Assembly (NCBI GenBank): GCA_028713675.1
Contig: JAQTNV010000016.1
Coordinates: 54 to 64,053 of the forward strand
Origin: a bacterium
GTDB lineage: Bacteria > Desulfobacterota > JAPLJL01
Length of the DNA stretch: 64,000 nt
Direction of reading: 5' to 3'
In this document: one piece after another, positions 5,548-32,714 of the stretch
Position numbering within the stretch: the stretch's first letter is position 1
Layout: every line of letters begins with the position of its first letter
Notes under the pieces: model-generated
What the model saw: only the letters and a program-made list of their open reading frames with translations
The model's database searches: none
What the model was told of the DNA's origin: nothing
Made by a program: the position numbers and the translations under genes

Positions 5548-5838
5548 ATGAGGAAAAACAGACCCGATCTGAATTCCGTCCCGAGAATTACCCCCGGGAT
5601 CGCTTTCCGGATCATCGAGGGGGAAGCGGTGCTGGTTAACCCCGAAAACAAGATGATCTACGTTTTAAACCACACCGGGGCTTTTGCCTGGCAGAAAATT
5701 GACGGGAAAATCAACATTAAAAAAATCGCCCAGGCCCTTTCCCTGGAATACCAGGCAGACACCTCCAAAGCTGAAAATGATCTCCTGGAGCTTTTTGAAG
5801 GGCTGTCCGATCGCGGCCTGCTTTCCTGGAATAAATAA
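5548..5838 (+). CDS. PqqD-family peptide chaperone (RiPP recognition element)
   Basis: RIIEGEAVLVNPENKMIYVLNHTGAFAWQKIDG...DLLELFEGLSDRGLL, about 96 aa. Start at MRKNRP (5548). Confidence 0.88.
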   Translation: MRKNRPDLNSVPRITPGIAFRIIEGEAVLVNPENKMIYVLNHTGAFAWQKIDGKINIKKIAQALSLEYQADTSKAENDLLELFEGLSDRGLLSWNK

Positions 5839-5894: not shown

Positions 5895-6938
5895 ATGCCC
5901 GGTTACGAAAAAGTAATGAACCAGGCCGCGCGGCGGCTGACCCCAATTTCGGTATTAATTGAGCTGACGTACCGATGTAATCTTTCCTGCCGGCATTGCT
6001 ATATACCTCCCGGCCAACTCCATCCCAAATCCCCTTCCCAAAAATCCTCACTCACTCTAAAGGAATGGGCAAATATTTTTACCCAGCTGGCCGAATCCGG
6101 AACGCTGTTTCTGACTTTTACCGGGGGAGAAACCCTGCTCTATCCGAAATTCCCGGAACTGCTGAAAATCGCCCGGGAACAACGCTTCACCTTTCGTGTT
6201 TTTACCAACGGAACCCTGATTACGAGGGAAACCGTAAAAAAACTTTCCCGTCTGCACCCTTTCGAGGTTGAAATCAGTGTCTACGCCGCCGATCCCCGCC
6301 TTCACGACCTGGTCACCGGAAGGAAAGGCTCGTTCGAGCTCACCTGGAACGCTATCAGGATGCTCAAGAATGAGGGCATCAAGGTCAATTTAAAAACCCC
6401 GGTCATGACGCTTAATCAAAAAGAGGTCAAGCCACTGCGGGATTTGGCCCGCGACCTGGACCTTCCGATTCAATTTTCCTATGTCCTCTCCCCCCGTGAC
6501 GACGGTAACTCCGCTCCTTTGAAGCTTCAGCTCAAAACCCGGGAAATCCGGGCCTGTCTGTCGCGGGAATACGATTCCGAATCCTGCCCGGACCTGGCCC
6601 CCAATCCCGGACGCAAACCGGGTGACCCGATCTGCTCGGCCGGGAGAAATTCCCTGGCGATTTCCCCCGCAGGCAAGGTTTATCCCTGCGTTCAGATCCG
6701 CCGGGAAGCCGGCGATTTGAGAAAAGAGAAATTCGCGGCAATCTGGAAGAAATCCCCGGTGCTCCGGGAAATCAGGGGAATGACCATGGCGCAGGTTCCG
6801 GAATGCCTTTCCTGCCGTGACCTGGGATTCTGCTCTTTGTGTCCGGGAATGTCCCTGATTTTATCGGACGAAGTCGAGGAACCTTACTGGCCGTCATGCG
6901 AACTGGCCCGGGCGCGGGCAAAGGGAGGGAAAAAATAA
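5895..6938 (+). CDS. Radical SAM/SPASM domain maturase
   Basis: ELTYRCNLSCRHCY, FTGGE, FTNGT; SPASM cysteines CSAGRNSLAISPAGKVYPC...CLSCRDLGFCSLCPG...C. Confidence 0.9.
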   Translation: MPGYEKVMNQAARRLTPISVLIELTYRCNLSCRHCYIPPGQLHPKSPSQKSSLTLKEWANIFTQLAESGTLFLTFTGGETLLYPKFPELLKIAREQRFTFRVFTNGTLITRETVKKLSRLHPFEVEISVYAADPRLHDLVTGRKGSFELTWNAIRMLKNEGIKVNLKTPVMTLNQKEVKPLRDLARDLDLPIQFSYVLSPRDDGNSAPLKLQLKTREIRACLSREYDSESCPDLAPNPGRKPGDPICSAGRNSLAISPAGKVYPCVQIRREAGDLRKEKFAAIWKKSPVLREIRGMTMAQVPECLSCRDLGFCSLCPGMSLILSDEVEEPYWPSCELARARAKGGKK

Positions 6939-21971: not shown

Positions 21972-22005
21972 TGCATCCCGCCCTGGCGGGATGCAGTTCC
22001 TCTAC
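21972..22005 (-). repeat. GTAG-type REP hairpin overlapping the C25 gene stop codon
   Basis: TGCATCCCGCC CT GGCGGGATGCA perfect 11-bp stem; the minus-strand GTAG contains the TAG stop. Confidence 0.7.
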
Positions 22006-25000
22006 TCAAGTCTGGCCGAAGGGTCTCCGAACAGATGATAGCTTCTGAGAATATCAGGCGACCCTCCACCCTGGACCTGGCTGATTTTCGCCTTCAGGAA
22101 ACTGGAGCCCAAAGTCTCGCCGTCAACCAGTGAGTGCAGGAAAACATTATTCAATTGAATCTGCTGTTCGGGATAAGTGAACCCGGAAGAGAACAGGCCG
22201 GCATAGGCCCCTCCGTTCGGAAGGCGGACCAGCTCCTCGCCCAGGGACTCAAGGTAAGGCACGTCAAAATATCCGCCCAGACAACTCAAGGCAACGGCCA
22301 GGAAGGTCTTCCCGTTCCCCGCGAGAGACGAGACATCAGCAACCCCGAAAATATCCTCCTGGGCATACTTATCGATGGCGGAATGGCCCGCATATTCAAA
22401 GATCCCCCGCCCTTCCAGGAGGGAGTTCAGAATCATCTGCCGGGTCGCCTCCAGGCCCAGGCTCCCCAGATAGGCCCGGGTGATATCGAAGCCCGGAGTC
22501 AGAATCGCCGCCGCCGCTTCCATTCCCTGCTCAAAAATCGGGTCATCGTTGTCCGCGGAAACCAGCACCTTTTCCCCGGCAAGTGTCCTGCCCTTCAGGG
22601 CCAGAATCTTCGCCACCATCGTCTGTACCTCGGCCGGGGTCCGGGCCGGCAGGCGGCCGATGGCCAGGTCGGGAATCTCGTCCGTTCCGTCCACGCAGGC
22701 ATACCAGTTGTCGGAAGGAGCGGTAAGTTCCAGGTAATCGTTGGTCACCTGCGGGGCCGGGATAAATCCGGTGTTCCCGGTGCCCATGTAATCCTTGAAA
22801 TCGTAGCTCGCGTCCCCGACCAGAAGCACATAAGCCGGGGCCGGGGAAACCCACTGATGATAGGTGAAGCCGATGAAATCCCTGATGGCCTGGGGATCGG
22901 CCTGGCCGTAATTAAACTCGTCGTAAATGTCCTGCACGTCCACCAAACTGACCCGCAGGCCCTCCTCAGCCCGGGCCGAAGCCAGGGGAGCCAGATCATT
23001 ACGGAAAGCGCTGGGACTGATGATAATCAAATCCGCCTCGTTACTCGGGTCCTTGAGCATGGAGGACTGGTCCCTCAAGAGGAAGGTCTGAGCGGTCAGC
23101 GCTCCTGCCGTCAGGACCATATATTCACCGGTCGCAGCCCGGAATTTCACCTGGTACCCGGATTCCTGCTGCGTAATGTTCAGGTCAATCACCCGGGCCT
23201 GGTCCGTCCTGGCCCCCAGCCGGTAAACCATAATATCGCCGCCGGGGAACCCGGGGATTTCCACGTTCGCGTCCGTAGGTACCTGGAACCTGACTTTCCC
23301 GGAACTTCCCGAAAGCGACCGCAGGTAGCTGACCTCGATGCTGTTCAGCAAAATCACGTTGTTGACCGCCCCGGTATCCCCGACCAGGGTCAGGGTCAGG
23401 GTATTTCCGGACGCGTTCATAACGCCGGCCGGGATGGAGAAGGATGCCGAAATCTCGCCCCGGCCTCCCCAGGAAATCTCCCCGATCACAACCCGGTTCA
23501 GGACCACCCGGAGGTGATTTTCATTCTCGATCGCGGGATCTTCCAGGAGACCGATCACGGACAGATTAATACTGCCTTCCGCGCCCGCTGCCGGATCGGG
23601 AATTTCCAAGGCGAAATCCTTGGGCTGATCGGAAACCAGGTAATCCCAATACCAATGATCGACCGGATCGCCGCCGGGCATGTTCGCGAAGTAATTCTTA
23701 TTCTGCTCCAGGAGCTGAACCTGGGTAACCTTGCTCAGGCCAGGCAGGCCCGATTCGGGAGAACCGGAAACCCTGGGCAGGGAGGAACCCATCCGGAGGT
23801 CGGGAACAATCCAATAAACCGAGGTCCGGGTGTATTTGCTGTCGGGTTTCCGCCCCACGAAACGCAGTTCGAGATTATTATCCTTGGCGCCCGCCAGCCA
23901 TTGCAGGAATCTTTTCTGCACATCCCGGGAATCGGACACACCTGCCCCGGCTACGGCCAATTCAACCGGGATCTCCTCGCCCTGGTAAAACACCCGGAGG
24001 CCCCTGGTCCGAAGTCCGAGGCTGCTCAGATTATTGAGAGGAACGCGGCAGATTCCGTCTTTGTCAATTCCCAACTTCACGGCCTGGCCGGAAAGGGTAA
24101 TCAATTTCCACTGTTCGTCCGCTTCCAGATACTTCAACCACTGCCCAAACGGGAGGGAATGCCTCGCGCCCAATCCCTGGGATAACCTTCCTAAACCTCT
24201 GAAGATGCCGCTTAAAAGGTCAGAATCCAGAAGCGGATCGGTTGCGCGGCATTCCCCGAGGTTCAGCTTGATTTCGATGGTTTCGGATACCTGGTATGTC
24301 CCAACTCCGGCACCGGGTTGGACCGGGTTAACCTTGAGGACCGCGATCCTCTGCCCCCGGAGGTAACCGGCTTCAGCGATTTGAACCAGCGGCGCGTTAA
24401 GCCGATTGGCACTGGTGGATGACATCCGGCTCAAGCCCAAGGGGTCCAGGTTTTTCTGGGCGTTGTTCCACTCGCGGTTCTGCTGCCGGAAAATTTGGCC
24501 CACGTCGGCGGATACCTGCCGGATATCGGTGGAACGAACCTGTCCCAGGCTCACGTTTTCGCAATCGGGAATCGCGACCACCCGTTCGAAAGGTATGGCC
24601 TGCCACTGGGATGGATTACCGGCCAGGCCGGGGAACTGGAGAAGAATCACGTTCCCGTTTTGAGTGTTCTTTCCTCCCCCGTTCGCCGGCGGCGGATTCA
24701 CCGGGTTAAGATTGCCGTTCGCGGGCGGATTGTGATCCTGATTACCGCCGGTGTCGGAATTCTGATTCTGGCTTCTGCCGCTGATATTTTCAGACAAATT
24801 CGGATTGTTATTGTCCGCCGGCAACAAATTTTCCGGAGAAGAAATTATTCCGGAAGCGGAAAGCGCAACGGCGGAAACCGGCCCGTGCGACTTGGTCTTC
24901 CCGTCAAACTCGACATCCTCAAGGAGGTAGTAATAGGTCGTTCCCGGCTCCACATCGTAATCGGTGTAATCGTAGTTCGACCCGAGGGCCGAAGTACCCA

Positions 25001-25919
25001 ACCCAGCGATCAGATATTTATTTATTTGAACATAGCCATCGTAGGGGCGGGGCTGGTCCCCGCCCGAACTGACGGTTGACCGGTAAAGGTTGAAGCCCAA
25101 ATTCCGGATCTCGGTTCCCGTGGCCCAGTTGAGCTTTATCCCTCCGACGGTCCCGGTAGCGTTGAATGAAATCAACTCGACGGCGGTAGGATTGGGTTTC
25201 ACGCCTTGGGAATTGCCGGAAAGAAAAGCGGTTGAATAGGTGGAAAAAGTATCCGTGTAAATTATTTTCAACGCGAAATAATAAATATCGGTATTGTTCG
25301 GCGTCGTAACAGTATAAGTAGTGCCGGTGATCAAACTCGCATTTGCCTTAGTCCAGGTATCGGCATCGGTGGGCAGATAACTTGTGCTCGTTGTCTGGTA
25401 GTAGTAAACGTCATACCCGGCAATCACATTGGTAGTCCCGGCATACTGCGCCGCAGCCCAGGATAAATCAACCTGACTGGATCTGACTGCAATTATCTGT
25501 GGAACTGGAATCGTTTGGAGCGTCGCCTCCGGGAAGAAGGTAATCCCTCCATCATCCCGGATCACGTCGCTGGTCACCGCATAATATCCGGTATGGGACG
25601 AACCTCCGCCACCTGACTGGTAATCTATCTTGGTTACGAATGTTTCTCCTAAAATATAAGTATCAATATTACCGGCGTCGGAATACCAAATATCAGAGGA
25701 AACATTACCGGAAAAAGGCAGGTCATCGTTATCATTGAATTTCCAGGTGGTAAAGGCAGTGCTTGAGCCTCCCGTGTTGGAAGCAACATGCCCGGACACC
25801 GCCCAGGAAGCTCCTGGCGGGGCCGCCTTTACAAATGAAGGGAACCCAGCAAGCAATAAAATCCCGCAAGATACACTGATAATATGCCTGAACTTATTCA
25901 TGATGTTAAATTTTAGCAT
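22002..25919 (-). CDS. Secreted C25 family (gingipain-like) cysteine peptidase with N-terminal FN3-like domains
   Basis: Signal peptide; PTAVELISF...GFNLYRS module; ADLIIISP, YVLLVGDASYD, SDNWY, LAIGRLP, YAGHS (His), LSCLGG (Cys), LFGDP. Confidence 0.9.
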   Translation of the reverse strand: MLKFNIMNKFRHIISVSCGILLLAGFPSFVKAAPPGASWAVSGHVASNTGGSSTAFTTWKFNDNDDLPFSGNVSSDIWYSDAGNIDTYILGETFVTKIDYQSGGGGSSHTGYYAVTSDVIRDDGGITFFPEATLQTIPVPQIIAVRSSQVDLSWAAAQYAGTTNVIAGYDVYYYQTTSTSYLPTDADTWTKANASLITGTTYTVTTPNNTDIYYFALKIIYTDTFSTYSTAFLSGNSQGVKPNPTAVELISFNATGTVGGIKLNWATGTEIRNLGFNLYRSTVSSGGDQPRPYDGYVQINKYLIAGLGTSALGSNYDYTDYDVEPGTTYYYLLEDVEFDGKTKSHGPVSAVALSASGIISSPENLLPADNNNPNLSENISGRSQNQNSDTGGNQDHNPPANGNLNPVNPPPANGGGKNTQNGNVILLQFPGLAGNPSQWQAIPFERVVAIPDCENVSLGQVRSTDIRQVSADVGQIFRQQNREWNNAQKNLDPLGLSRMSSTSANRLNAPLVQIAEAGYLRGQRIAVLKVNPVQPGAGVGTYQVSETIEIKLNLGECRATDPLLDSDLLSGIFRGLGRLSQGLGARHSLPFGQWLKYLEADEQWKLITLSGQAVKLGIDKDGICRVPLNNLSSLGLRTRGLRVFYQGEEIPVELAVAGAGVSDSRDVQKRFLQWLAGAKDNNLELRFVGRKPDSKYTRTSVYWIVPDLRMGSSLPRVSGSPESGLPGLSKVTQVQLLEQNKNYFANMPGGDPVDHWYWDYLVSDQPKDFALEIPDPAAGAEGSINLSVIGLLEDPAIENENHLRVVLNRVVIGEISWGGRGEISASFSIPAGVMNASGNTLTLTLVGDTGAVNNVILLNSIEVSYLRSLSGSSGKVRFQVPTDANVEIPGFPGGDIMVYRLGARTDQARVIDLNITQQESGYQVKFRAATGEYMVLTAGALTAQTFLLRDQSSMLKDPSNEADLIIISPSAFRNDLAPLASARAEEGLRVSLVDVQDIYDEFNYGQADPQAIRDFIGFTYHQWVSPAPAYVLLVGDASYDFKDYMGTGNTGFIPAPQVTNDYLELTAPSDNWYACVDGTDEIPDLAIGRLPARTPAEVQTMVAKILALKGRTLAGEKVLVSADNDDPIFEQGMEAAAAILTPGFDITRAYLGSLGLEATRQMILNSLLEGRGIFEYAGHSAIDKYAQEDIFGVADVSSLAGNGKTFLAVALSCLGGYFDVPYLESLGEELVRLPNGGAYAGLFSSGFTYPEQQIQLNNVFLHSLVDGETLGSSFLKAKISQVQGGGSPDILRSYHLFGDPSARLE
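25041..25065 (+). repeat. GTAG REP hairpin inside the C25 coding sequence
   Basis: GTAG GGGCGGGG CTGGT CCCCGCCC; read as GGDQPRPY on the minus strand. Confidence 0.7.
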
Positions 25920-25925
25920 AACCTT

Positions 25926-28900
25926 TTAATAATGAGTTGGCTGCCAGGTACTATTCCCGGTTATTCTAACGTAATAACCCATGCCCGGGGTTAAGGCGAA
26001 ATTTTCCCCGATCCAGAATGGCGTGAATGGAACTTTGGTCCCGCTGTGATAACAACCTCCGATGCCGCAATTCCCACCCGGATCCAAGTAACCGACGCTC
26101 GCGCAATTAGGTACGCTGGAGCATAAAGTCTTTGCGTCCGCATAATTGTGGTGGAAAGGCAAAGAGAAATAATTATTATTGGTTTTTCCGCTATAGAACG
26201 TCTTGGATATCATGGTGATTTGATTATGAGATCCTACTAAAACCATATTTGAGTTCGCGGTAATCCGAACATAATATCCTTGGCTCGGATCAATTGTGAA
26301 ATTCTCCCCTATCCAAAAAGGCGAGAATGGAACCTTGGTCCCGCTATGATAGCATCCTCCCACTCCGCAATTCCCGCCCGGATCCGAGTAACCGATGCTT
26401 GCGCAATTAGGAATATCCGCGCAGAGGCTTTTGGCATCAGTGTAATTATGGAAATATGGAATTGTCACCCAGTTATTGTCTGTTTTACCGGCATAATAAG
26501 TTAAAGCCCTGTTAAGCTTGAATCCCATATTGGAATCCATTGACTCCAGACCCCAGATATTCACCGAAGTGATCAAATAATAATAGTTTTTATTCGTATC
26601 CTGAATTACCCAGGGATCGATATATTCGGCACTGGGTGATGTTCCGATAAGATTGCTAAAGCCGACTTTGTCTGGAACGAAATTCGGGGTTTCGCCACGG
26701 TAAACTCGGTAATAATTAATAGTGGTAGGATCACCATCCACCGTTTGAGTTACCGCTGTCCAATAAAGACGCAGGTCAGTCCCAGATTTATTCGCTTTCA
26801 AATCCGAAATCGCCTTCGGGGGGCTGGAAGGATAGAAACTGATAATAGTGCTTCCCGAAGCGCTCCCGCCGTAGGCGATGTCGTCGGCGCTGATACTGGC
26901 AATACCGTCGATGATGGCGGACTGAACGACAAATGAAATCATTCCCCCGCTCGTGCTGGCTTGGATTCCAGGTGTTAATGCATCCATATCGGAGGAAATA
27001 ATTATTCCCCAGCTGGTTGCAATCGTGATGTAAGTACCATCCGGAACGGTATTGCCGTATGCGTCCTTAATCACATCGCTGGTGACCGTGCTGGTGCTGG
27101 CTCCGTCCGCGGGAATAGCGCCCGGATTGGGAAGAAGGGTTATCGTCCCGGCGGGCGGGCCCGGGGTTAAGGCTACCGTCGTGCTTCCCGAAGCTGTCCC
27201 TCCGTAAGCGCTGTTGTTGGCGCCGAGATGGGCGGTACCGGCTAATGTCCCGGCCCGGAGAACAAACGTAATAATCCCTCCTGAAGTAGCAACTTCCTGC
27301 GTCCCCGGCGTCGCCGGATCAGCATCAGCGGTGGTTATCGTCCCCAGGTCCGTCGAGACAGTTATATATTCCCCATTCAGGACCTGGTTGCCGTAAGCGT
27401 CGTGGATTATCCCGCTGGTAATGGTGCTGGTATCGCTCCCGTTGGCCGTGATCGTTGCTGGGACCGGGGTAAGAGTAATAGGCCCCGTCGGGATATTGGA
27501 AAGGACCTGAACCGCGTCGGAGACCGAACGAGTCTGATTGTTGGTTCCCCCATCGGTCAGATAAAGTGTCGGAAAATAGGAACCCAGGGTGAAGCTTCCG
27601 CTCACCGCCTGGGAGTTGAAAATCAGATGCTGCGTGGCGCCAGCCGGGATGGAAACCAAAGAGTTAAGATCGGCGGTGTAAGTCCTCGTTCCATCGGTGA
27701 AGGTGAAATAAGATCCGGTAGCCAGGCTTACCCCCTGCCCTCCCATATTTATCACGTCGAGCCCGAAGGAAACCGGGTCTCCCGCGCGGGCGGAGGTTGG
27801 CGACAGAGTGCTTCCAATATAAAGAAGGTTTGACCCCACGTAACCGGTGAAATAAAGGACCTGGGCAGCCGTGGCTCCCAAATAAGAAGCGGTAACAACG
27901 GATTGGGTATTCACGGAGGAAACCGGAGCGGTCAAGGTCACCCTGGCCACCCCGGAACCGTCGGTCACCGCCGTCCCGGAGGAAAGTGTGCCGGAGGTCG
28001 CGGTAAAGCTGACTGTCTGGCCGGAAAGCGGTGTTCCTCCGGAGGTCAACAGCGCGTCAACCGCATAAACGCTGGAACCATCCGCGGGAAGCGGTCCGGC
28101 CGGGATGTTGGAAAGCGAAACTTCATATAGAGTCACCAGGACTTTATCCGACGCCGTCCCCAGGTAATTATTACCCTGCCTGAATACCGCTTGGATAACA
28201 TATTCGGTGTTTTCCGGGCGGGCCGGGACTGCGGAGCAAACAACGCTGAAGGTCGCCGAGCCGCCAACCGGGAGGTTGGCTCCAGTTCCGCCCGCCGAGG
28301 CCGCGCGGAAAGTCAGGTTGTTTCCTTGGATGGTAAGGGCCCAGTTCCCCAGCGGGGCACCCGGACCGGTCGCACTGACAACAGTAAAACCGGTCGGGAC
28401 GATAAACCACATCCGGTCAACCGGGGTTGAACCGTTGTTAGCCACGGTTAAATTAAGCGTCCAATTCGGGGGAACGCTGCCTGACGCCACGGTGTCCGGG
28501 TTTAATATCAGGTAATACGGAACCAGCTGGCCGGACTGCGAAACGGCTGTATTAGTGGTAGTCGGCCCATTGGCCGTAGCATCACCCTGGAATTGGTAAG
28601 TATCCCCGCCAACGCCGTTTACTTGATAAATCCAGGTAAATGTTCCGGAACCTCCGGGAGGAAGACTGGCAATGGACTCCGGAGATGGACCTGACTGCAA
28701 TGTCTTGCTGGCAGTTCCAAGAAAGGTCAAAGCCGAAGGAACAATATTTCCAAGAGAAATTGTGCCGTTATTGGTCACGCGCATGGAAACAGTCACGTTA
28801 TAACCCGAACCGATGCTGACCGGGTCGAGAGCAAGTTCGGCGGTGAAATTCCCGATTACGATAGTATTGGATGAAGTTTGATTGGAGGAAACCATCCCGT

Positions 28901-30452
28901 TGGAAGCCAGATTGGAGAAAGTTACCGTCCCGACCGTTGCCGCCTGATAATTATAAATTGTCGACCCTGATATGCCTGAAGCCAAATTTAAAGTGCCTGG
29001 AACGGGTCCCGAAACCCAGTTTGCTAAACCGGTGTTGCCGGAACCCGGAGGAAACAACATGGTGCCCGGGGTGATCCCATTCTGCTGAACCGTCGAACGA
29101 TTGGTAATTAAAAAGTCGAGATTAATTCCACCGATGACCCCAAGTGATCCGGGGGCAGCGAAAATCTGCGGCTTCAGGCCTTTTCTCGGCCAGCCGGGAA
29201 GGCCCCCCTGCCGGGTCAGAGGGTTGGTCGTAAAATCCGATCCTCCCCAGGCTAAAGCATCTGCCATGGTATCGTTCTGGTCCGAGGCGGCGGCGGGAAT
29301 GGGATTCTCTCCGTTGGGCCGGCCGGTAATCTCGGCTTTAAAGATGAGCGAACCGCCGGGAGGAATGGCCTTGGCCGGGTCCGTGGTCCAATATTCGACG
29401 GGCGCGTTGTTCCCGACCACGTTGACATTCCAGCCCGGAGGAGCTGAGCTTCCCGAGCCCGACTCGTAAATGTTATTGCCGCCGCCGAAAAAGTTGGTCC
29501 GGATCGACATAATGGACCGACCGGGGCTTGAAGTGGTGTTCGTAACCAGGAAGTAAACAACCCCCGAACCGTCACCCATCGTCACTTCCGAGGAAACCGT
29601 GGTAATGGTGAATTGCGCTGAGCTGATAGCCACGGCATTGGAAGTAACCGCCGGAGAAGTAACCGTGCTGGCGCCGTTGCGCGCCGAGTCGGAAAAAGTC
29701 GTGGTTCCTTCGGCCGCAGCCTTGTAAGTGTACATAAAGTTGCCCGATGCCCCGGAGGCTAAATTCCGGCTCGTGGGTGTCGGCCCGGTGAGCAATGTCG
29801 CCGAGCCGGTTGGCGTCACGGTCATGGTATTAGGGACAATGTTATTCTGGGTACCAGTAGTGCGGTTGGTAACGGCGAAAGTCAGGGTAATCGTCCCGTC
29901 GATACCTACTGAACCTGGTGCAGCCGAAAGCTGGGCGGCAAGTCCGTTCCGGGTCCAGGCCGGTAGAACTCCCTGGCGGGCAAAGGCAGCGCCGGTATTA
30001 TCATAGGCTGCCGCCGCCGAAAGTGAATCAGTCACGTTTGCAGCGGCGCTGGGAATAACGGATGAACTGGGCCCGGTAAGGGTGATATTGAAAATTAAAT
30101 TCGCGCCCTTCGCTATTGGATTTGTGGTGGTCGTGCAATTAATAACGTTGGCGGCCGTGGTGCAACTCCACCCCGTCGGAGGAGTCTGGCTGGAACTGAC
30201 ATAATAGGTAGCGATGGGAAAGGTTAATTGAACCCGGTAAATCGATTGATTGCTGTTCCCAGTATTAGAATTGGCAATCTGGAGTGAAACCGTCCCGGAA
30301 GCATCACCCATAGTCACGCTGCTGGATGAGGTTGTGGGAGTAAAACGCATGGCCGCATGGACATTCCCGGAATAAAATAAAATCAGCAAACCAATAATGC
30401 AGGAGAAAACCTGGCTTGGGAAAAATAACTTTAAGGAAGAGATTTTCATCAT
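25926..30452 (-). CDS. 1508-aa secreted Ser/Thr/Gly-rich adhesin-like protein with Big_1/invasin-like and FN3 domains and internal repeats
   Basis: Signal peptide; two ~245-aa N-terminal repeats; ADGSS...PLSGQTVSF and DAYGN.V..G..IT Ig-like modules; two ~90-aa Cys-containing C-terminal repeats. Confidence 0.8.
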   Translation of the reverse strand: MMKISSLKLFFPSQVFSCIIGLLILFYSGNVHAAMRFTPTTSSSSVTMGDASGTVSLQIANSNTGNSNQSIYRVQLTFPIATYYVSSSQTPPTGWSCTTAANVINCTTTTNPIAKGANLIFNITLTGPSSSVIPSAAANVTDSLSAAAAYDNTGAAFARQGVLPAWTRNGLAAQLSAAPGSVGIDGTITLTFAVTNRTTGTQNNIVPNTMTVTPTGSATLLTGPTPTSRNLASGASGNFMYTYKAAAEGTTTFSDSARNGASTVTSPAVTSNAVAISSAQFTITTVSSEVTMGDGSGVVYFLVTNTTSSPGRSIMSIRTNFFGGGNNIYESGSGSSAPPGWNVNVVGNNAPVEYWTTDPAKAIPPGGSLIFKAEITGRPNGENPIPAAASDQNDTMADALAWGGSDFTTNPLTRQGGLPGWPRKGLKPQIFAAPGSLGVIGGINLDFLITNRSTVQQNGITPGTMLFPPGSGNTGLANWVSGPVPGTLNLASGISGSTIYNYQAATVGTVTFSNLASNGMVSSNQTSSNTIVIGNFTAELALDPVSIGSGYNVTVSMRVTNNGTISLGNIVPSALTFLGTASKTLQSGPSPESIASLPPGGSGTFTWIYQVNGVGGDTYQFQGDATANGPTTTNTAVSQSGQLVPYYLILNPDTVASGSVPPNWTLNLTVANNGSTPVDRMWFIVPTGFTVVSATGPGAPLGNWALTIQGNNLTFRAASAGGTGANLPVGGSATFSVVCSAVPARPENTEYVIQAVFRQGNNYLGTASDKVLVTLYEVSLSNIPAGPLPADGSSVYAVDALLTSGGTPLSGQTVSFTATSGTLSSGTAVTDGSGVARVTLTAPVSSVNTQSVVTASYLGATAAQVLYFTGYVGSNLLYIGSTLSPTSARAGDPVSFGLDVINMGGQGVSLATGSYFTFTDGTRTYTADLNSLVSIPAGATQHLIFNSQAVSGSFTLGSYFPTLYLTDGGTNNQTRSVSDAVQVLSNIPTGPITLTPVPATITANGSDTSTITSGIIHDAYGNQVLNGEYITVSTDLGTITTADADPATPGTQEVATSGGIITFVLRAGTLAGTAHLGANNSAYGGTASGSTTVALTPGPPAGTITLLPNPGAIPADGASTSTVTSDVIKDAYGNTVPDGTYITIATSWGIIISSDMDALTPGIQASTSGGMISFVVQSAIIDGIASISADDIAYGGSASGSTIISFYPSSPPKAISDLKANKSGTDLRLYWTAVTQTVDGDPTTINYYRVYRGETPNFVPDKVGFSNLIGTSPSAEYIDPWVIQDTNKNYYYLITSVNIWGLESMDSNMGFKLNRALTYYAGKTDNNWVTIPYFHNYTDAKSLCADIPNCASIGYSDPGGNCGVGGCYHSGTKVPFSPFWIGENFTIDPSQGYYVRITANSNMVLVGSHNQITMISKTFYSGKTNNNYFSLPFHHNYADAKTLCSSVPNCASVGYLDPGGNCGIGGCYHSGTKVPFTPFWIGENFALTPGMGYYVRITGNSTWQPTHY

Positions 30453-30814
30453 GCTTCTAATCGAACCCGGGTTTCGGCCATGACCCGGTAAATTTTTGAC
30501 AAAACGATGGCCTTCATACCTGCCGATATTTTAAATAAATCCTGATTTTTATCGGTGACCCTGGTCACCCGGTCGACTCGCCCGAAAACCCGCTCCTTTT
30601 CAACCGGCGGATCGAAATTCCGACAACGATCTCCCTTGGTTAGAAACATTCCATTCTTGGATCCATACAGGCGGTGGACAAACAGGCTGGAATTTCTCCA
30701 GAAAGCGATAACGTCACCCTTGCGTAATTCTTCGACCCCGCAGGCTCTGACCTCTACCTGGTCACCATGGTTAATGGTCGGAACCATGGATTTGCCTTTA
30801 ATTTCGATTTGCAT
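30449..30814 (-). CDS. S24/S26 family peptidase (signal-peptidase-like, no transmembrane anchor)
   Basis: GKSMVPTI (Ser), GDVIAF, FVHRL (His in the Lys position), LTKGD. The stop overlaps the ATG of the adhesin gene. Confidence 0.85.
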   Translation of the reverse strand: MQIEIKGKSMVPTINHGDQVEVRACGVEELRKGDVIAFWRNSSLFVHRLYGSKNGMFLTKGDRCRNFDPPVEKERVFGRVDRVTRVTDKNQDLFKISAGMKAIVLSKIYRVMAETRVRLEA

Positions 30815-31063
30815 TTTAAAATGGTCAAAATTTAGCTATTCAACATTGAGCACAAGCCAACCACTACCTTCCCTGGCGGAGCCGGGGCGCATATCCCTGC
30901 CCTTCCCTCAATTTTTTCCTCTAAAATAATCCTGGGTTTTTCATAAGGTTTCTTCTGAATATTTTTGACTTCTTTTTTGAGCTTTTTTTCAGACATATTT
31001 TCCCGCCTTTTCCTGTTGTGCCCGCGGTTAATTACATTTACTCAATTTTCCCGGTAAAAACTC

Positions 31064-31090
31064 GGCAAATGTTCAGGAACATTTGCCTAC
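31064..31090 (-). repeat. GTAG-type REP hairpin
   Basis: GGCAAATGTTC AG GAACATTTGCC followed by TAC; 11-bp perfect stem. Confidence 0.75.
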
Positions 31091-31180
31091 CAAGCCTTAA
31101 GTATATTGTATGGAGGTAATCTTATTAAGTCAATTATATATAGGCAACAATATTATATGGTTTCAGTGCCAGTGTTTTTG

Positions 31181-31545
31181 GTCTGTCTCGTCTGTCTAGT
31201 CTATCTAGTCTATCTGGTCTATGAATGGCATGGAGCATAAGGCATAAGGCATAGAGCAAAGAACAAAGAACATAGAGCAAAGCACAGTGAGCAAAGAGTC
31301 CATTGCGTCTATTGAGTTCATTGCATCCGTTGTGTCTGTTAATCGTTTCGTCTTTCTGGTCTGTTTGGTTTCTCTGGTTTCTCTGGTTTCTCTGGTTTCT
31401 CTCGTTTCTTTGGGTTTAACTCGAGACTAGAGATCCGAAACTCGAAACTTGTTTTCTTTGGCTTAACTCTAAACAAGAGACTGGAGACTAGAGATGACCT
31501 TTTACTATTCCGCAATCCACAATCTGCATTCCGCAATTATCAGTT
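31181..31545. repeat. Block of 7- and 9-bp arrays
   Basis: gtctatcta 9-mers, ggcataa/gagcaaa heptamers, tttctctgg 9-mers, aactcgagactagagatccgaaactcgaaact, tccgcaatccacaatctgcattccgcaa. Confidence 0.85.
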
Positions 31546-31554
31546 GATATTTTG

Positions 31555-31672
31555 TGGTTTATTCTGACCTACCGGGTCGATCCTGACCCCCTTTTTCAAA
31601 TCCCGGTTATTTCCATTCCTCGTCGGCAAACCATAAATACCTTCCCCGTAAAACCTTGGCACGGACCTTGCA
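31555..31672 (+). promoter_or_regulatory. Sigma-54 promoter with tandem enhancer sites
   Basis: TGGCACGGACCTTGCA at 31657-31672; GGGTC-GATCCT-GACCC at 31574-31589 and TGGTT-TATTCT-GACCT at 31555-31570. Confidence 0.8.
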
Positions 31673-31739
31673 ACTTAAAGATGACATGGGTGAAAAAATT
31701 CAGTTCAACCTGAACCAAAAAGGAAGAAGGAGAAATTTA

Positions 31740-32714
31740 ATGAACTCACTAAAAAACCAAAAAATGGGGAAGAATATCAGGCCTCTAATAATCGCTTTTG
31801 TTCTTCTGTTGGTTTCCCTTTATTCGGGACCGGTTCTTGCCGCCCCCCAAGGCGAATCCTGGCCTGCCGTTGGGAGCTTGCTTTCTGTAACCCCGTGTTC
31901 CGAATGCACTTACACAACCTGGAAAACAAGCAATACGGACAGAACCTTTATTAGTTCCACCCTTGACCCATCAAACTGGTGGTATTCCGATCTGGGAAAT
32001 ATTACCAATTGGAGTTGGGGGGACACCTTCATCACCAAGCTGGATTTCCTGTCGGAAAGTTCCGATGCCAACCACGCAGGATTCTATGCGGTAACGAGCA
32101 AGATTATTCAAGACGATGGAGGATATACTGTTTTCCCGGAGTCTACCCTTCGCCCCATCCCGATCCCTCAGGTTGTTGACACTAGAGAATCCGGAGAGGT
32201 TGATCTGTCCTGGTCCGCAGGGCAATCGGCGGGGGATGCAGATCTTATTACCGGATACCTGCTTTATTCATTTAAAACCACCGACGAAAATTATCAGCCC
32301 ACCGATAACGACACCTGGAATCAGGTCGATGAATTGATTACCGAAACCAGCCGTACCCTTACCGGTCTAGATTCTGAAAACACCTACTATTTCGCGCTTC
32401 GAATCGTTTATCCGGACGGTTTTTCCACCACCCATATTTCCGGGAATTCGGCGGCGGTGAGAGTAAATCCTCCCGCCCCTCTTATCCCCGATGTACCGGA
32501 GCTCAGTCTGTTTATTGAACCGATTAATGATCCCCCGGCGGATGAACCGTCCGCGAACGATCCTCAGCCATCCGATCCCTCGGTTGAAAGCCAGATAAAT
32601 CCGGATCTGGGCGGCGGAACTTTCCCCGGCCTGGGCGGCTGCGGCGCCGATGGCCACCTGGGGTTCGGGTTTCTTCCCCTCTTCGGAATATTCTTCCTGA
32701 AAAGAAAGAATTAA
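31740..32714 (+). CDS. Exported protein with an FN3-like domain, Pro/Asp linker and GC-CTERM-like sorting signal
   Basis: Start at 31740 behind GGAG and downstream of the sigma-54 promoter; signal peptide; C-terminus GLGGCGADGHLGFGFLPLFGIFFLKRKN. Confidence 0.8.
   Translation: MNSLKNQKMGKNIRPLIIAFVLLLVSLYSGPVLAAPQGESWPAVGSLLSVTPCSECTYTTWKTSNTDRTFISSTLDPSNWWYSDLGNITNWSWGDTFITKLDFLSESSDANHAGFYAVTSKIIQDDGGYTVFPESTLRPIPIPQVVDTRESGEVDLSWSAGQSAGDADLITGYLLYSFKTTDENYQPTDNDTWNQVDELITETSRTLTGLDSENTYYFALRIVYPDGFSTTHISGNSAAVRVNPPAPLIPDVPELSLFIEPINDPPADEPSANDPQPSDPSVESQINPDLGGGTFPGLGGCGADGHLGFGFLPLFGIFFLKRKN

Follow-up and report, generated by a model that had tools for sequence, protein, structure and literature searches.

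The 64,000-nucleotide (nt) stretch of DNA analyzed here (the window; all coordinates are window positions unless a contig or locus is named) belongs to a member of the Desulfobacterota/Thermodesulfobacteriota from a landfill metagenome (genome completeness of 91%). On its minus strand it encodes a serine peptidase of the S24/S26 type, a giant secreted repeat protein and a C25 cysteine peptidase similar to PorU, which an earlier note had described as a translationally coupled three-gene operon for the maturation of a surface adhesin. The three open reading frames (ORFs) of 121, 1508 and 1305 amino acids (aa) and both of their junctions were confirmed: the stop codon of the peptidase gene and the start codon of the 1508-aa gene have ATGA in common (a 4-bp overlap), and a 6-bp gap (AAGGTT) separates the TAA of the 1508-aa gene from the ATG of the C25 gene. 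The operon nonetheless consists of four genes, not three, as a 54-aa peptide ORF that ends 17 bases 5′ of the peptidase gene had been overlooked. The features of the operon, in the direction of transcription, are:

31105 to 31133, minus strand: sigma-70-like promoter, TTGACT-17-TACAAT (10 of 12 consensus matches; a consensus match only)
31064 to 31087, minus strand: hairpin and U-run in the 5′ leader (10-pair stem, then GAGTTTTT), between the promoter and the start codon of the peptide
30832 to 30996, minus strand: precursor-like peptide, 54 aa (leader/core MSEKKLKKEVKNIQKKPYEKPRIILEEKIEGRAG/ICAPAPPGKVVVGLCSMLNS)
30449 to 30814, minus strand: anchorless S24/S26 serine peptidase of the endoplasmic reticulum (ER)/archaeal/SipW type, 121 aa (Ser9/His47)
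25926 to 30452, minus strand: secreted repeat protein P0002, 1508 aa, with a signal peptide and several repeat/adhesin-type domains
22002 to 25919, minus strand: secreted PorU-like C25 cysteine peptidase, 1305 aa, with a signal peptide (His1179/Cys1213)
21973 to 21994, minus strand: GC-rich stem-loop (GCATCCCGC-CAGG-GCGGGATGC), 8 nt past the C25 stop codon

Among the loci of relatives (designated L; genomes are designated G and families f), the promoter hexamers are kept 5′ of the peptide gene in L014, L016, L021 and L076, and the ribosome-binding region is likewise kept. A similar hairpin with a T-run occurs in the 5′ leader of L014, and the hairpin of the window may be an attenuator or regulatory leader. 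The stem-loop behind the C25 gene is the probable end of the operon; it is not a classical intrinsic terminator because it lacks a U-run.

The 54-aa peptide (full sequence MSEKKLKKEVKNIQKKPYEKPRIILEEKIEGRAGICAPAPPGKVVVGLCSMLNS) consists of an invariant KKPYEKPRIILEEKIEGRA leader and a variable core with two Cys residues. In an alignment of close relatives, residues Y18 to A33 (YEKPRIILE.KIEGRA) were unchanged save for one E/D position, while the last 20 residues varied around the two retained Cys, a GK pair and the terminal Ser. Every related contig carries a homologous peptide ORF directly 5′ of the peptidase gene. Comparison of codons 15 to 34 with the most divergent relative (L016) gave eight synonymous and two nonsynonymous changes, and the ORF is therefore under purifying selection and read as a protein. 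A profile search of public data recovered 44 clusters of this peptide family (all members with a source name are labeled hypothetical), and tblastn found no second copy in this genome. NCBIfam and Pfam scans of the peptide, and of the 352-aa and 176-aa proteins, returned nothing useful. A conserved leader, a variable core and, in relatives, maturation enzymes encoded alongside are the features of a precursor of a ribosomally synthesized and posttranslationally modified peptide (RiPP).

The peptidase that follows matched Pfam Peptidase_S24 above the cut-off (29.3 bits; cut-off 23.3) and the NCBIfam model for archaeal-type signal peptidase I (TIGR02228) below it (48.1 bits; cut-off 51.85). Both the lack of a transmembrane anchor and the Ser/His dyad reported in the earlier note hold up: the maximum 19-residue hydropathy is 0.96, and in an alignment with Staphylococcus aureus SpsB, Ser9 falls in the GxSMxPT box and His47 at the position of the catalytic Lys. 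The ORF begins eight residues ahead of Ser9, with an in-frame stop upstream. His47 is invariant in 10 of 10 family members and Ser9 in the 7 with a complete N terminus; the 3 remaining gene calls begin at Met10 and hence lack Ser9. This close family is rare (ten 90% clusters among 5.8 billion proteins) and occurs in one other GTDB species, a metagenome-assembled genome of the same genus from Lac Pavin sediment, while distant S26-like relatives of ∼180 aa are found in peptide cassettes across the phylum. Having neither signal peptide nor anchor, the peptidase is predicted to be cytoplasmic, and to judge from sequence its substrate is most likely the 54-aa peptide, which it would trim, rather than the giant adhesin.

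To place these genes in a wider context, 401 sampled genomes of the phylum were searched with profiles and 30 neighborhoods were inspected. Relatives of the S26-like peptidase were present in 49 genomes and PorU-like C25 proteins in 47. Matches to both (A1 profile for the S26-like peptidase) lay on one contig in 6 of 401 genomes, always within 8 kb and with the genes directly adjacent in all but the window, a co-localization beyond chance. BLAST of the fetched C25 neighborhoods showed the same adjacency in G140, G288, G171, G260, G231 and G164, and overall at least 12 further genomes of the phylum (7 families beyond that of the window) have the two genes side by side, with differing gene orders. 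The setting is a cassette that recurs in Desulfobacterota and comprises a small peptide, the S26-like peptidase, a PqqD-family protein, a radical S-adenosylmethionine (rSAM)/SPASM enzyme and an ScmC/HprK-like kinase (precomputed Pfam label PF27840 ScmC), often with a C25 peptidase and an ABC transporter.

Two arrangements of this cassette were distinguished. Type A (families f35, f54, f82 and f24) has the order PqqD, precursor of ∼35 aa, rSAM/SPASM enzyme, ScmC/HprK-like P-loop protein, C25 (∼1100 aa) and S26-like peptidase (∼180 aa), frequently with an ABC-2 transporter on the opposite strand; its precursors read M.KKYEKPxVITYSEEDI..IIGPAQT followed by 7 to 11 core residues. Type B (f104, f46, f79, f10, f82 and metagenomic contigs) has the order ScmC-like protein, PqqD, 347-aa rSAM/SPASM enzyme, precursor of ∼50 aa (KKYEKPKIIYRKEIETLAAxC...C...C...S) and S26-like peptidase, with C25 optional. 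The peptide of the window aligns with the type-B precursors, and Y18, P21, I23 and both Cys residues are invariant in that alignment. Homologous peptides lie within PqqD-rSAM/SPASM-ScmC cassettes, often directly before the S26-like gene, at L041, L029, L073, L080, L066 and L079 and on the P0049 contig. Four genomes without any C25 gene (G203, G271, G181 and G084) carry S26-bearing cassettes, and the peptidase therefore tracks the peptide module. In type-A cassettes with an rSAM gene, a Cys immediately follows GPAQT in all cases, and in those lacking the rSAM gene the cores are free of Cys (YNSFMEDELG at L048, 13931 to 14047, minus strand; ITSDAGV at L049, 6636 to 6746, plus strand); Cys presence thus follows rSAM presence, which links the enzyme to Cys. 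Both correlations, that of the peptidase with the peptide module and that of rSAM with Cys, favor enzymatic action on the peptide.

Two further observations concern the surroundings of these cassettes. In three genomes from two families, type-A cassettes with Pro/Ser/Thr-rich cores are flanked by genes for elongation factor P (EF-P) and an EpmA/PoxA-like lysyl-tRNA-synthetase homolog (L037, 17484 to 18973; L044, 17946 to 19000; L045, 1782 to 3268), which could be coincidence or a translational link. At L079 (4559 to 5653), a PF14907 nucleotidyltransferase gene lies ahead of the PqqD gene of a type-B cassette.

In the genome under study the cassette is dispersed. Searches by tblastn with cassette proteins located two further components in the window:

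5548 to 5838, plus strand: predicted PqqD-family peptide-binding protein (RiPP recognition element), a dispersed part of the cassette
5895 to 6938, plus strand: rSAM/SPASM enzyme, 347 aa, candidate modifier of the 54-aa peptide

The PqqD protein is homologous to cassette PqqD proteins, and its best NCBIfam matches (ScmD, 35.9 bits; lasso PqqD, 33.7 bits) were both below cut-off. The rSAM enzyme shares 33 to 35% identity with the type-B enzymes of G350 and G374, and its 12 best relatives outside the genus share 32 to 37%. Among those 12, the relatives in G180, G374, G350, G203, G181 and G084 are part of a cassette with PqqD, ScmC-like kinase, S26-like peptidase and/or homologous precursor, and the one in G061 is directly followed by two precursor-like peptides; a lower-ranked relative in G271 also lies in a cassette. 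In the sister species (G002), the PqqD/rSAM pair and the C25 gene share one contig with the same spacing as in the window. The 54-aa ORF is the obvious candidate precursor for the PqqD/rSAM pair of its own window.

The third gene of the operon encodes P0002, which carries two repeats of ∼250 aa (residues 34 to 280 and 280 to 535), a DUF7507/CARDB-like region, two Big_1/invasin-D3-like domains (985 to 1211) and two Cys-rich C-terminal repeats of ∼110 aa (1285 to 1495). No C-terminal sorting signal is visible on P0002, and a C-terminal domain (CTD) of the type IX secretion system (T9SS) was not detected. In all close relatives the peptidase is followed by a P0002-like protein with shuffled domain content (its gene is divided in another way in the sister species), and this arrangement is confined to the narrow clade, outside which no P0002 homolog was found. 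The fourth gene encodes a C25 protein made up of an N-terminal module (residues 2 to 246), a GFNLYR beta-sandwich (∼243 to 351), an N/P/G-rich linker and a PorU-like region (610 to 1304). As the earlier note had it, the catalytic residues are intact and the protein ends with the catalytic domain: His1179 (YAGHS) and Cys1213 (LSCLG) align with those of PorU (PDB 6ZA2, its sole sequence match among solved structures), Pfam Peptidase_C25 spans residues 965 to 1304 of 1305 (267 bits), and no T9SS C-terminal sorting domain was detected. The match to the PorU model NF033707 covers profile positions 4 to 732 of 1095 and, at 226 bits, falls short of the model's cut-off (420). The T9SS core models for SprA and PorV (TIGR04189 and NF033710) were unmatched in this 91%-complete genome (the SprA control matched no genome either), which would fit the missing CTD.

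That adhesin-type and C25 domains can form one polypeptide in this system is shown by a type-B contig on which a 2874-aa protein directly after the precursor combines Big_5, CarboxypepD_reg, SdrD_B and BACON_2 domains with Peptidase_C25; genes for a PDZ protein, an S24 peptidase and an ABC transporter follow, with peptide, ScmC, PqqD and rSAM genes nearby. The P0002 and C25 proteins of the window look like a split form of such a protein. The basis of this idea is the type of the domains and the fused protein, because BLAST of P0002 against the C25 proteins of 25 loci, including the N termini of cassette C25 proteins, gave no match.

Gene content, conservation, co-localization and catalytic residues are as observed; from them we infer the enzymatic steps, where the leader is cut and that the two window loci are linked. 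Together they probably reflect a system for RiPP-like peptide maturation, with the S26 enzyme as a cytoplasmic leader peptidase and the adhesin and C25 protein as an extracytoplasmic partner. All four genes, from the 54-aa precursor to the PorU-like C25 protein, would be expressed from the sigma-70-like promoter. The PqqD-type protein would bind the leader (KKPYEKPRI...IEGRA) through its lasso-like YxxPxI motif, and the rSAM/SPASM enzyme would modify the core with its two Cys residues, probably by introducing a cross-link of the thioether type. The terminal Ser, which is invariant within this clade, might be phosphorylated by a dispersed ScmC/HprK-like kinase, a reaction known from HprK-type kinases that act on the C-terminal Ser of lasso precursors (PMC8498205). 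In the cytoplasm, the anchorless Ser9/His47 enzyme would then take off the leader after EGRA, a site proposed because it offers the small residues at −3 and −1 that signal peptidases prefer; the junctions of type-A (AQT|C) and type-B (AAA|C) precursors follow the same small −3/−1 pattern. After export, the secreted C25 and repeat proteins may trim the peptide or use it in a sortase-like reaction.

Several points weigh against this interpretation. The PqqD/rSAM pair lies ∼24 kb from the peptide gene, and the ScmC/HprK-like P-loop gene of this genome (282 aa; contig C25:36537-37385) lies on another contig, away from any cassette, in a housekeeping context between rnc and der. The 282-aa protein ends in the hF(R/K)PD motif, as cassette kinases do, and had no match to the ScmC model at an E value of ≤0.001; it is a tentative member of this system. 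Action of the PqqD, rSAM and kinase proteins on the 54-aa peptide is presumed because of their homology and because no other precursor is apparent. There is no exporter gene at the locus, the peptide matched none of the curated precursor families, and the locus sequence turns up only in DNA metagenomes (landfill). The structure prediction suggested in the earlier note was run for the peptidase with AlphaFold2, and the resulting model (10-sequence alignment; predicted local distance difference test score of 46.5) was too poor for a fold search. As for the C25 protein, several cassettes do without one, marking it as facultative; PorU-like C25 genes also occur without a cassette nearby (L038, L054, L056, L057 and L059); and in a tree of PorU-like regions the C25 protein of the window is a long-branch lineage that joins no cassette subtype.

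These last three points, together with the dissimilarity between P0002 and the N termini of cassette C25 proteins, would also suit two independent modules on one transcript, with the peptide and its leader peptidase forming one, and the adhesin and C25 protein, active in adhesion or protein degradation, the other. We consider this unlikely, since C25 genes repeatedly adjoin the cassette in at least seven families beyond that of the window and in differing gene orders, one relative has a fused adhesin-C25 gene between its peptide and S24 genes, and in the window it is the peptide and peptidase genes, not the rSAM gene, that have kept the C25 and adhesin genes beside them. That precursor, S26 peptidase, surface protein and C25 protein remained together when the cassette was split suggests that peptide and surface protease are functionally connected.

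The operon has a divergently transcribed neighbor:

31656 to 32714, plus strand: divergent exported protein, 352 aa, whose N-terminal module is paralogous to the N terminus of the C25 protein

Residues 2 to 246 of the C25 protein are 44% identical to this protein, whose C terminus consists of a GC motif, membrane helix and KRKN tail. In the sister species, the same two genes (L021, 737 to 1576 and 7671 to 8216) have another, unrelated module in common (46% identity), and this concerted swap suggests homotypic docking or a common target of the two proteins; the 352-aa protein is a candidate surface anchor or partner of C25. On a quite unlikely version of events, the cross-linked peptide, perhaps with a phosphate on its terminal Ser, would be no free natural product but the dedicated partner of a sortase-type, PorU-like C25 protein, which, once the S26 enzyme has taken off the leader and the peptide has been exported, would employ it as a substrate, acceptor or anchor that tethers or activates the giant protein on the cell surface, and C25 may be docked through the N-terminal module that it has in common with the membrane-anchored 352-aa protein. 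This would amount to T9SS-independent, peptide-dependent surface attachment in Desulfobacterota and other phyla.

Two side observations relate to the 352-aa protein and its gene. At least five large proteins of this genome (C1:13701-15608, C1:222389-224266, C4:64709-66538, C14:15013-19359 and the 352-aa protein itself) have C-terminal tails in which G-C-(G/S) is followed by a hydrophobic helix and then by residues rich in Arg/Lys. Such tails form a sorting signal of the MYXO-CTERM-like kind and imply that a dedicated enzyme sorts these proteins. Between the two divergently transcribed genes, the AT-rich DNA (31140 to 31560) is full of short tandem arrays of the GAGAAACCA and TAGACTAGA types.

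The model put forward in the earlier note, in which the S24/S26 enzyme processes the adhesin and the C25 protein further matures or anchors it, would make the upstream ORF irrelevant and seems very unlikely. The tight coupling of the three genes speaks for it, as does the constant position of a P0002-like protein after the peptidase in the close clade. The co-occurrence to be sought by neighborhood search also materialized in part, as S26-like, adhesin-type and PorU-like C25 proteins recur together outside the genus (the 2874-aa fusion of a distant relative with its S24 gene; at least 12 genomes with the two peptidases). Processing of the adhesin by the peptidase was not borne out: an enzyme with neither signal peptide nor anchor is set against a Sec-exported adhesin, and its conserved neighbors are the peptide module, so that outside the clade it is accompanied by the small peptide, PqqD, rSAM and ScmC-like kinase genes and by no adhesin. 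The upstream ORF, moreover, shows purifying selection, and its peptide family is linked to the cassette. Orthology of the C25 protein to PorU, the T9SS sortase, which would cut a CTD from the adhesin and attach the adhesin to a surface glycolipid as in Bacteroidota, is extremely improbable, and we rejected this reading: PorU is its sole match among solved structures and the NF033707 match takes in the region ahead of the catalytic domain, but the score is far under the cut-off, the last third of the PorU profile and the protein's own CTD are missing, no CTD was detected on the adhesin, and PorV and SprA had no match (the SprA control genomes also being blank).

Should the peptide-maturation system proposed here prove correct, at least 44 clusters of "hypothetical" small ORFs would gain a role, and relatives of SynChlorMet-like cassettes, for which to our knowledge no precursor has been known, would acquire a precursor together with its leader peptidase. 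A homolog of ER-type signal peptidases that has no anchor would have been recruited as a cytoplasmic leader peptidase, and the many PorU-like C25 proteins that stand unexplained outside the Bacteroidota would be connected with a small modified peptide. For the "orphan" PqqD/rSAM pair of the window, the split arrangement would also provide a candidate substrate.

PorU and the C25 protein of the window are both secreted, their catalytic His and Cys align, and the PorU-specific region that precedes the catalytic domain is matched as well. The C-terminal third of PorU (Ig-like region) and the CTD are absent from the window protein, which has extra N-terminal modules and whose gene lies with a peptide-maturation module where PorU would have T9SS genes, no T9SS having been detected in the genome. 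The peptidase shares with signal peptidase I of the ER/archaeal/SipW type (TIGR02228; MEROPS S26B) the Ser of the SMxPT box, His in place of the bacterial Lys, and the GD box. True signal peptidases have an N-terminal membrane anchor, by which the active site comes to lie outside the cytoplasm, and cut Sec signals, whereas the window enzyme has no anchor and its proposed substrate is a RiPP-type leader. SodX is a small anchorless S26 protease that removes the pro-peptide of nickel superoxide dismutase and is encoded beside its short, N-terminally extended substrate. The window peptidase is likewise small, anchorless and encoded beside a gene for a short N-terminally extended substrate, while its score against the SodX model (TIGR02754) is 25 (cut-off 63).

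Among peptide systems, kinase-containing lasso clusters of the paeninodin type share the YxxPx(I/L) leader motif, a PqqD-type RiPP recognition element, an HprK-like kinase and a precursor ending in Ser (PMC8498205), and the PqqD-type partner scores equally well against lasso PqqD models and ScmD. The kinase and nucleotidyltransferase that act as a tailoring pair on phospho-glycosylated lasso peptides are paralleled by the PF14907 gene of L079. Neither the Asn-synthetase-like cyclase nor the transglutaminase-type B2 protease of lasso systems was present in the cassettes inspected (no dedicated genome-wide search was made), in which their place is taken by the rSAM/SPASM enzyme and the S26-type and C25 peptidases. 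A search of the literature found no published description of this cassette, and only the lasso-kinase precedent surfaced (PMC8498205).

The nearest curated system is SynChlorMet (SCM; TIGRFAMs/NCBIfam), composed of ScmC, the PqqD-like ScmD and the rSAM/SPASM enzymes ScmE and ScmF. The combination of an ScmC/HprK-like P-loop protein with PqqD-type and rSAM/SPASM proteins is the same, and the cassette homologs find their best or near-best curated matches in ScmC, ScmD and ScmE, although scores stayed far below the cut-offs (ScmC, 33 to 43 versus 125; ScmD, 36 versus 100; ScmE, 107 versus 400). SynChlorMet has two rSAM genes where the cassette has one, it lacks the S26-type peptidase and the frequent PorU-like C25 protein and ABC-2 transporter, and its parts are not spread over three loci as they are in this genome. 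The system is best described as a peptide-maturation cassette of the rSAM/PqqD kind, related to SynChlorMet but standing outside it, whose pair of peptidases is without precedent.

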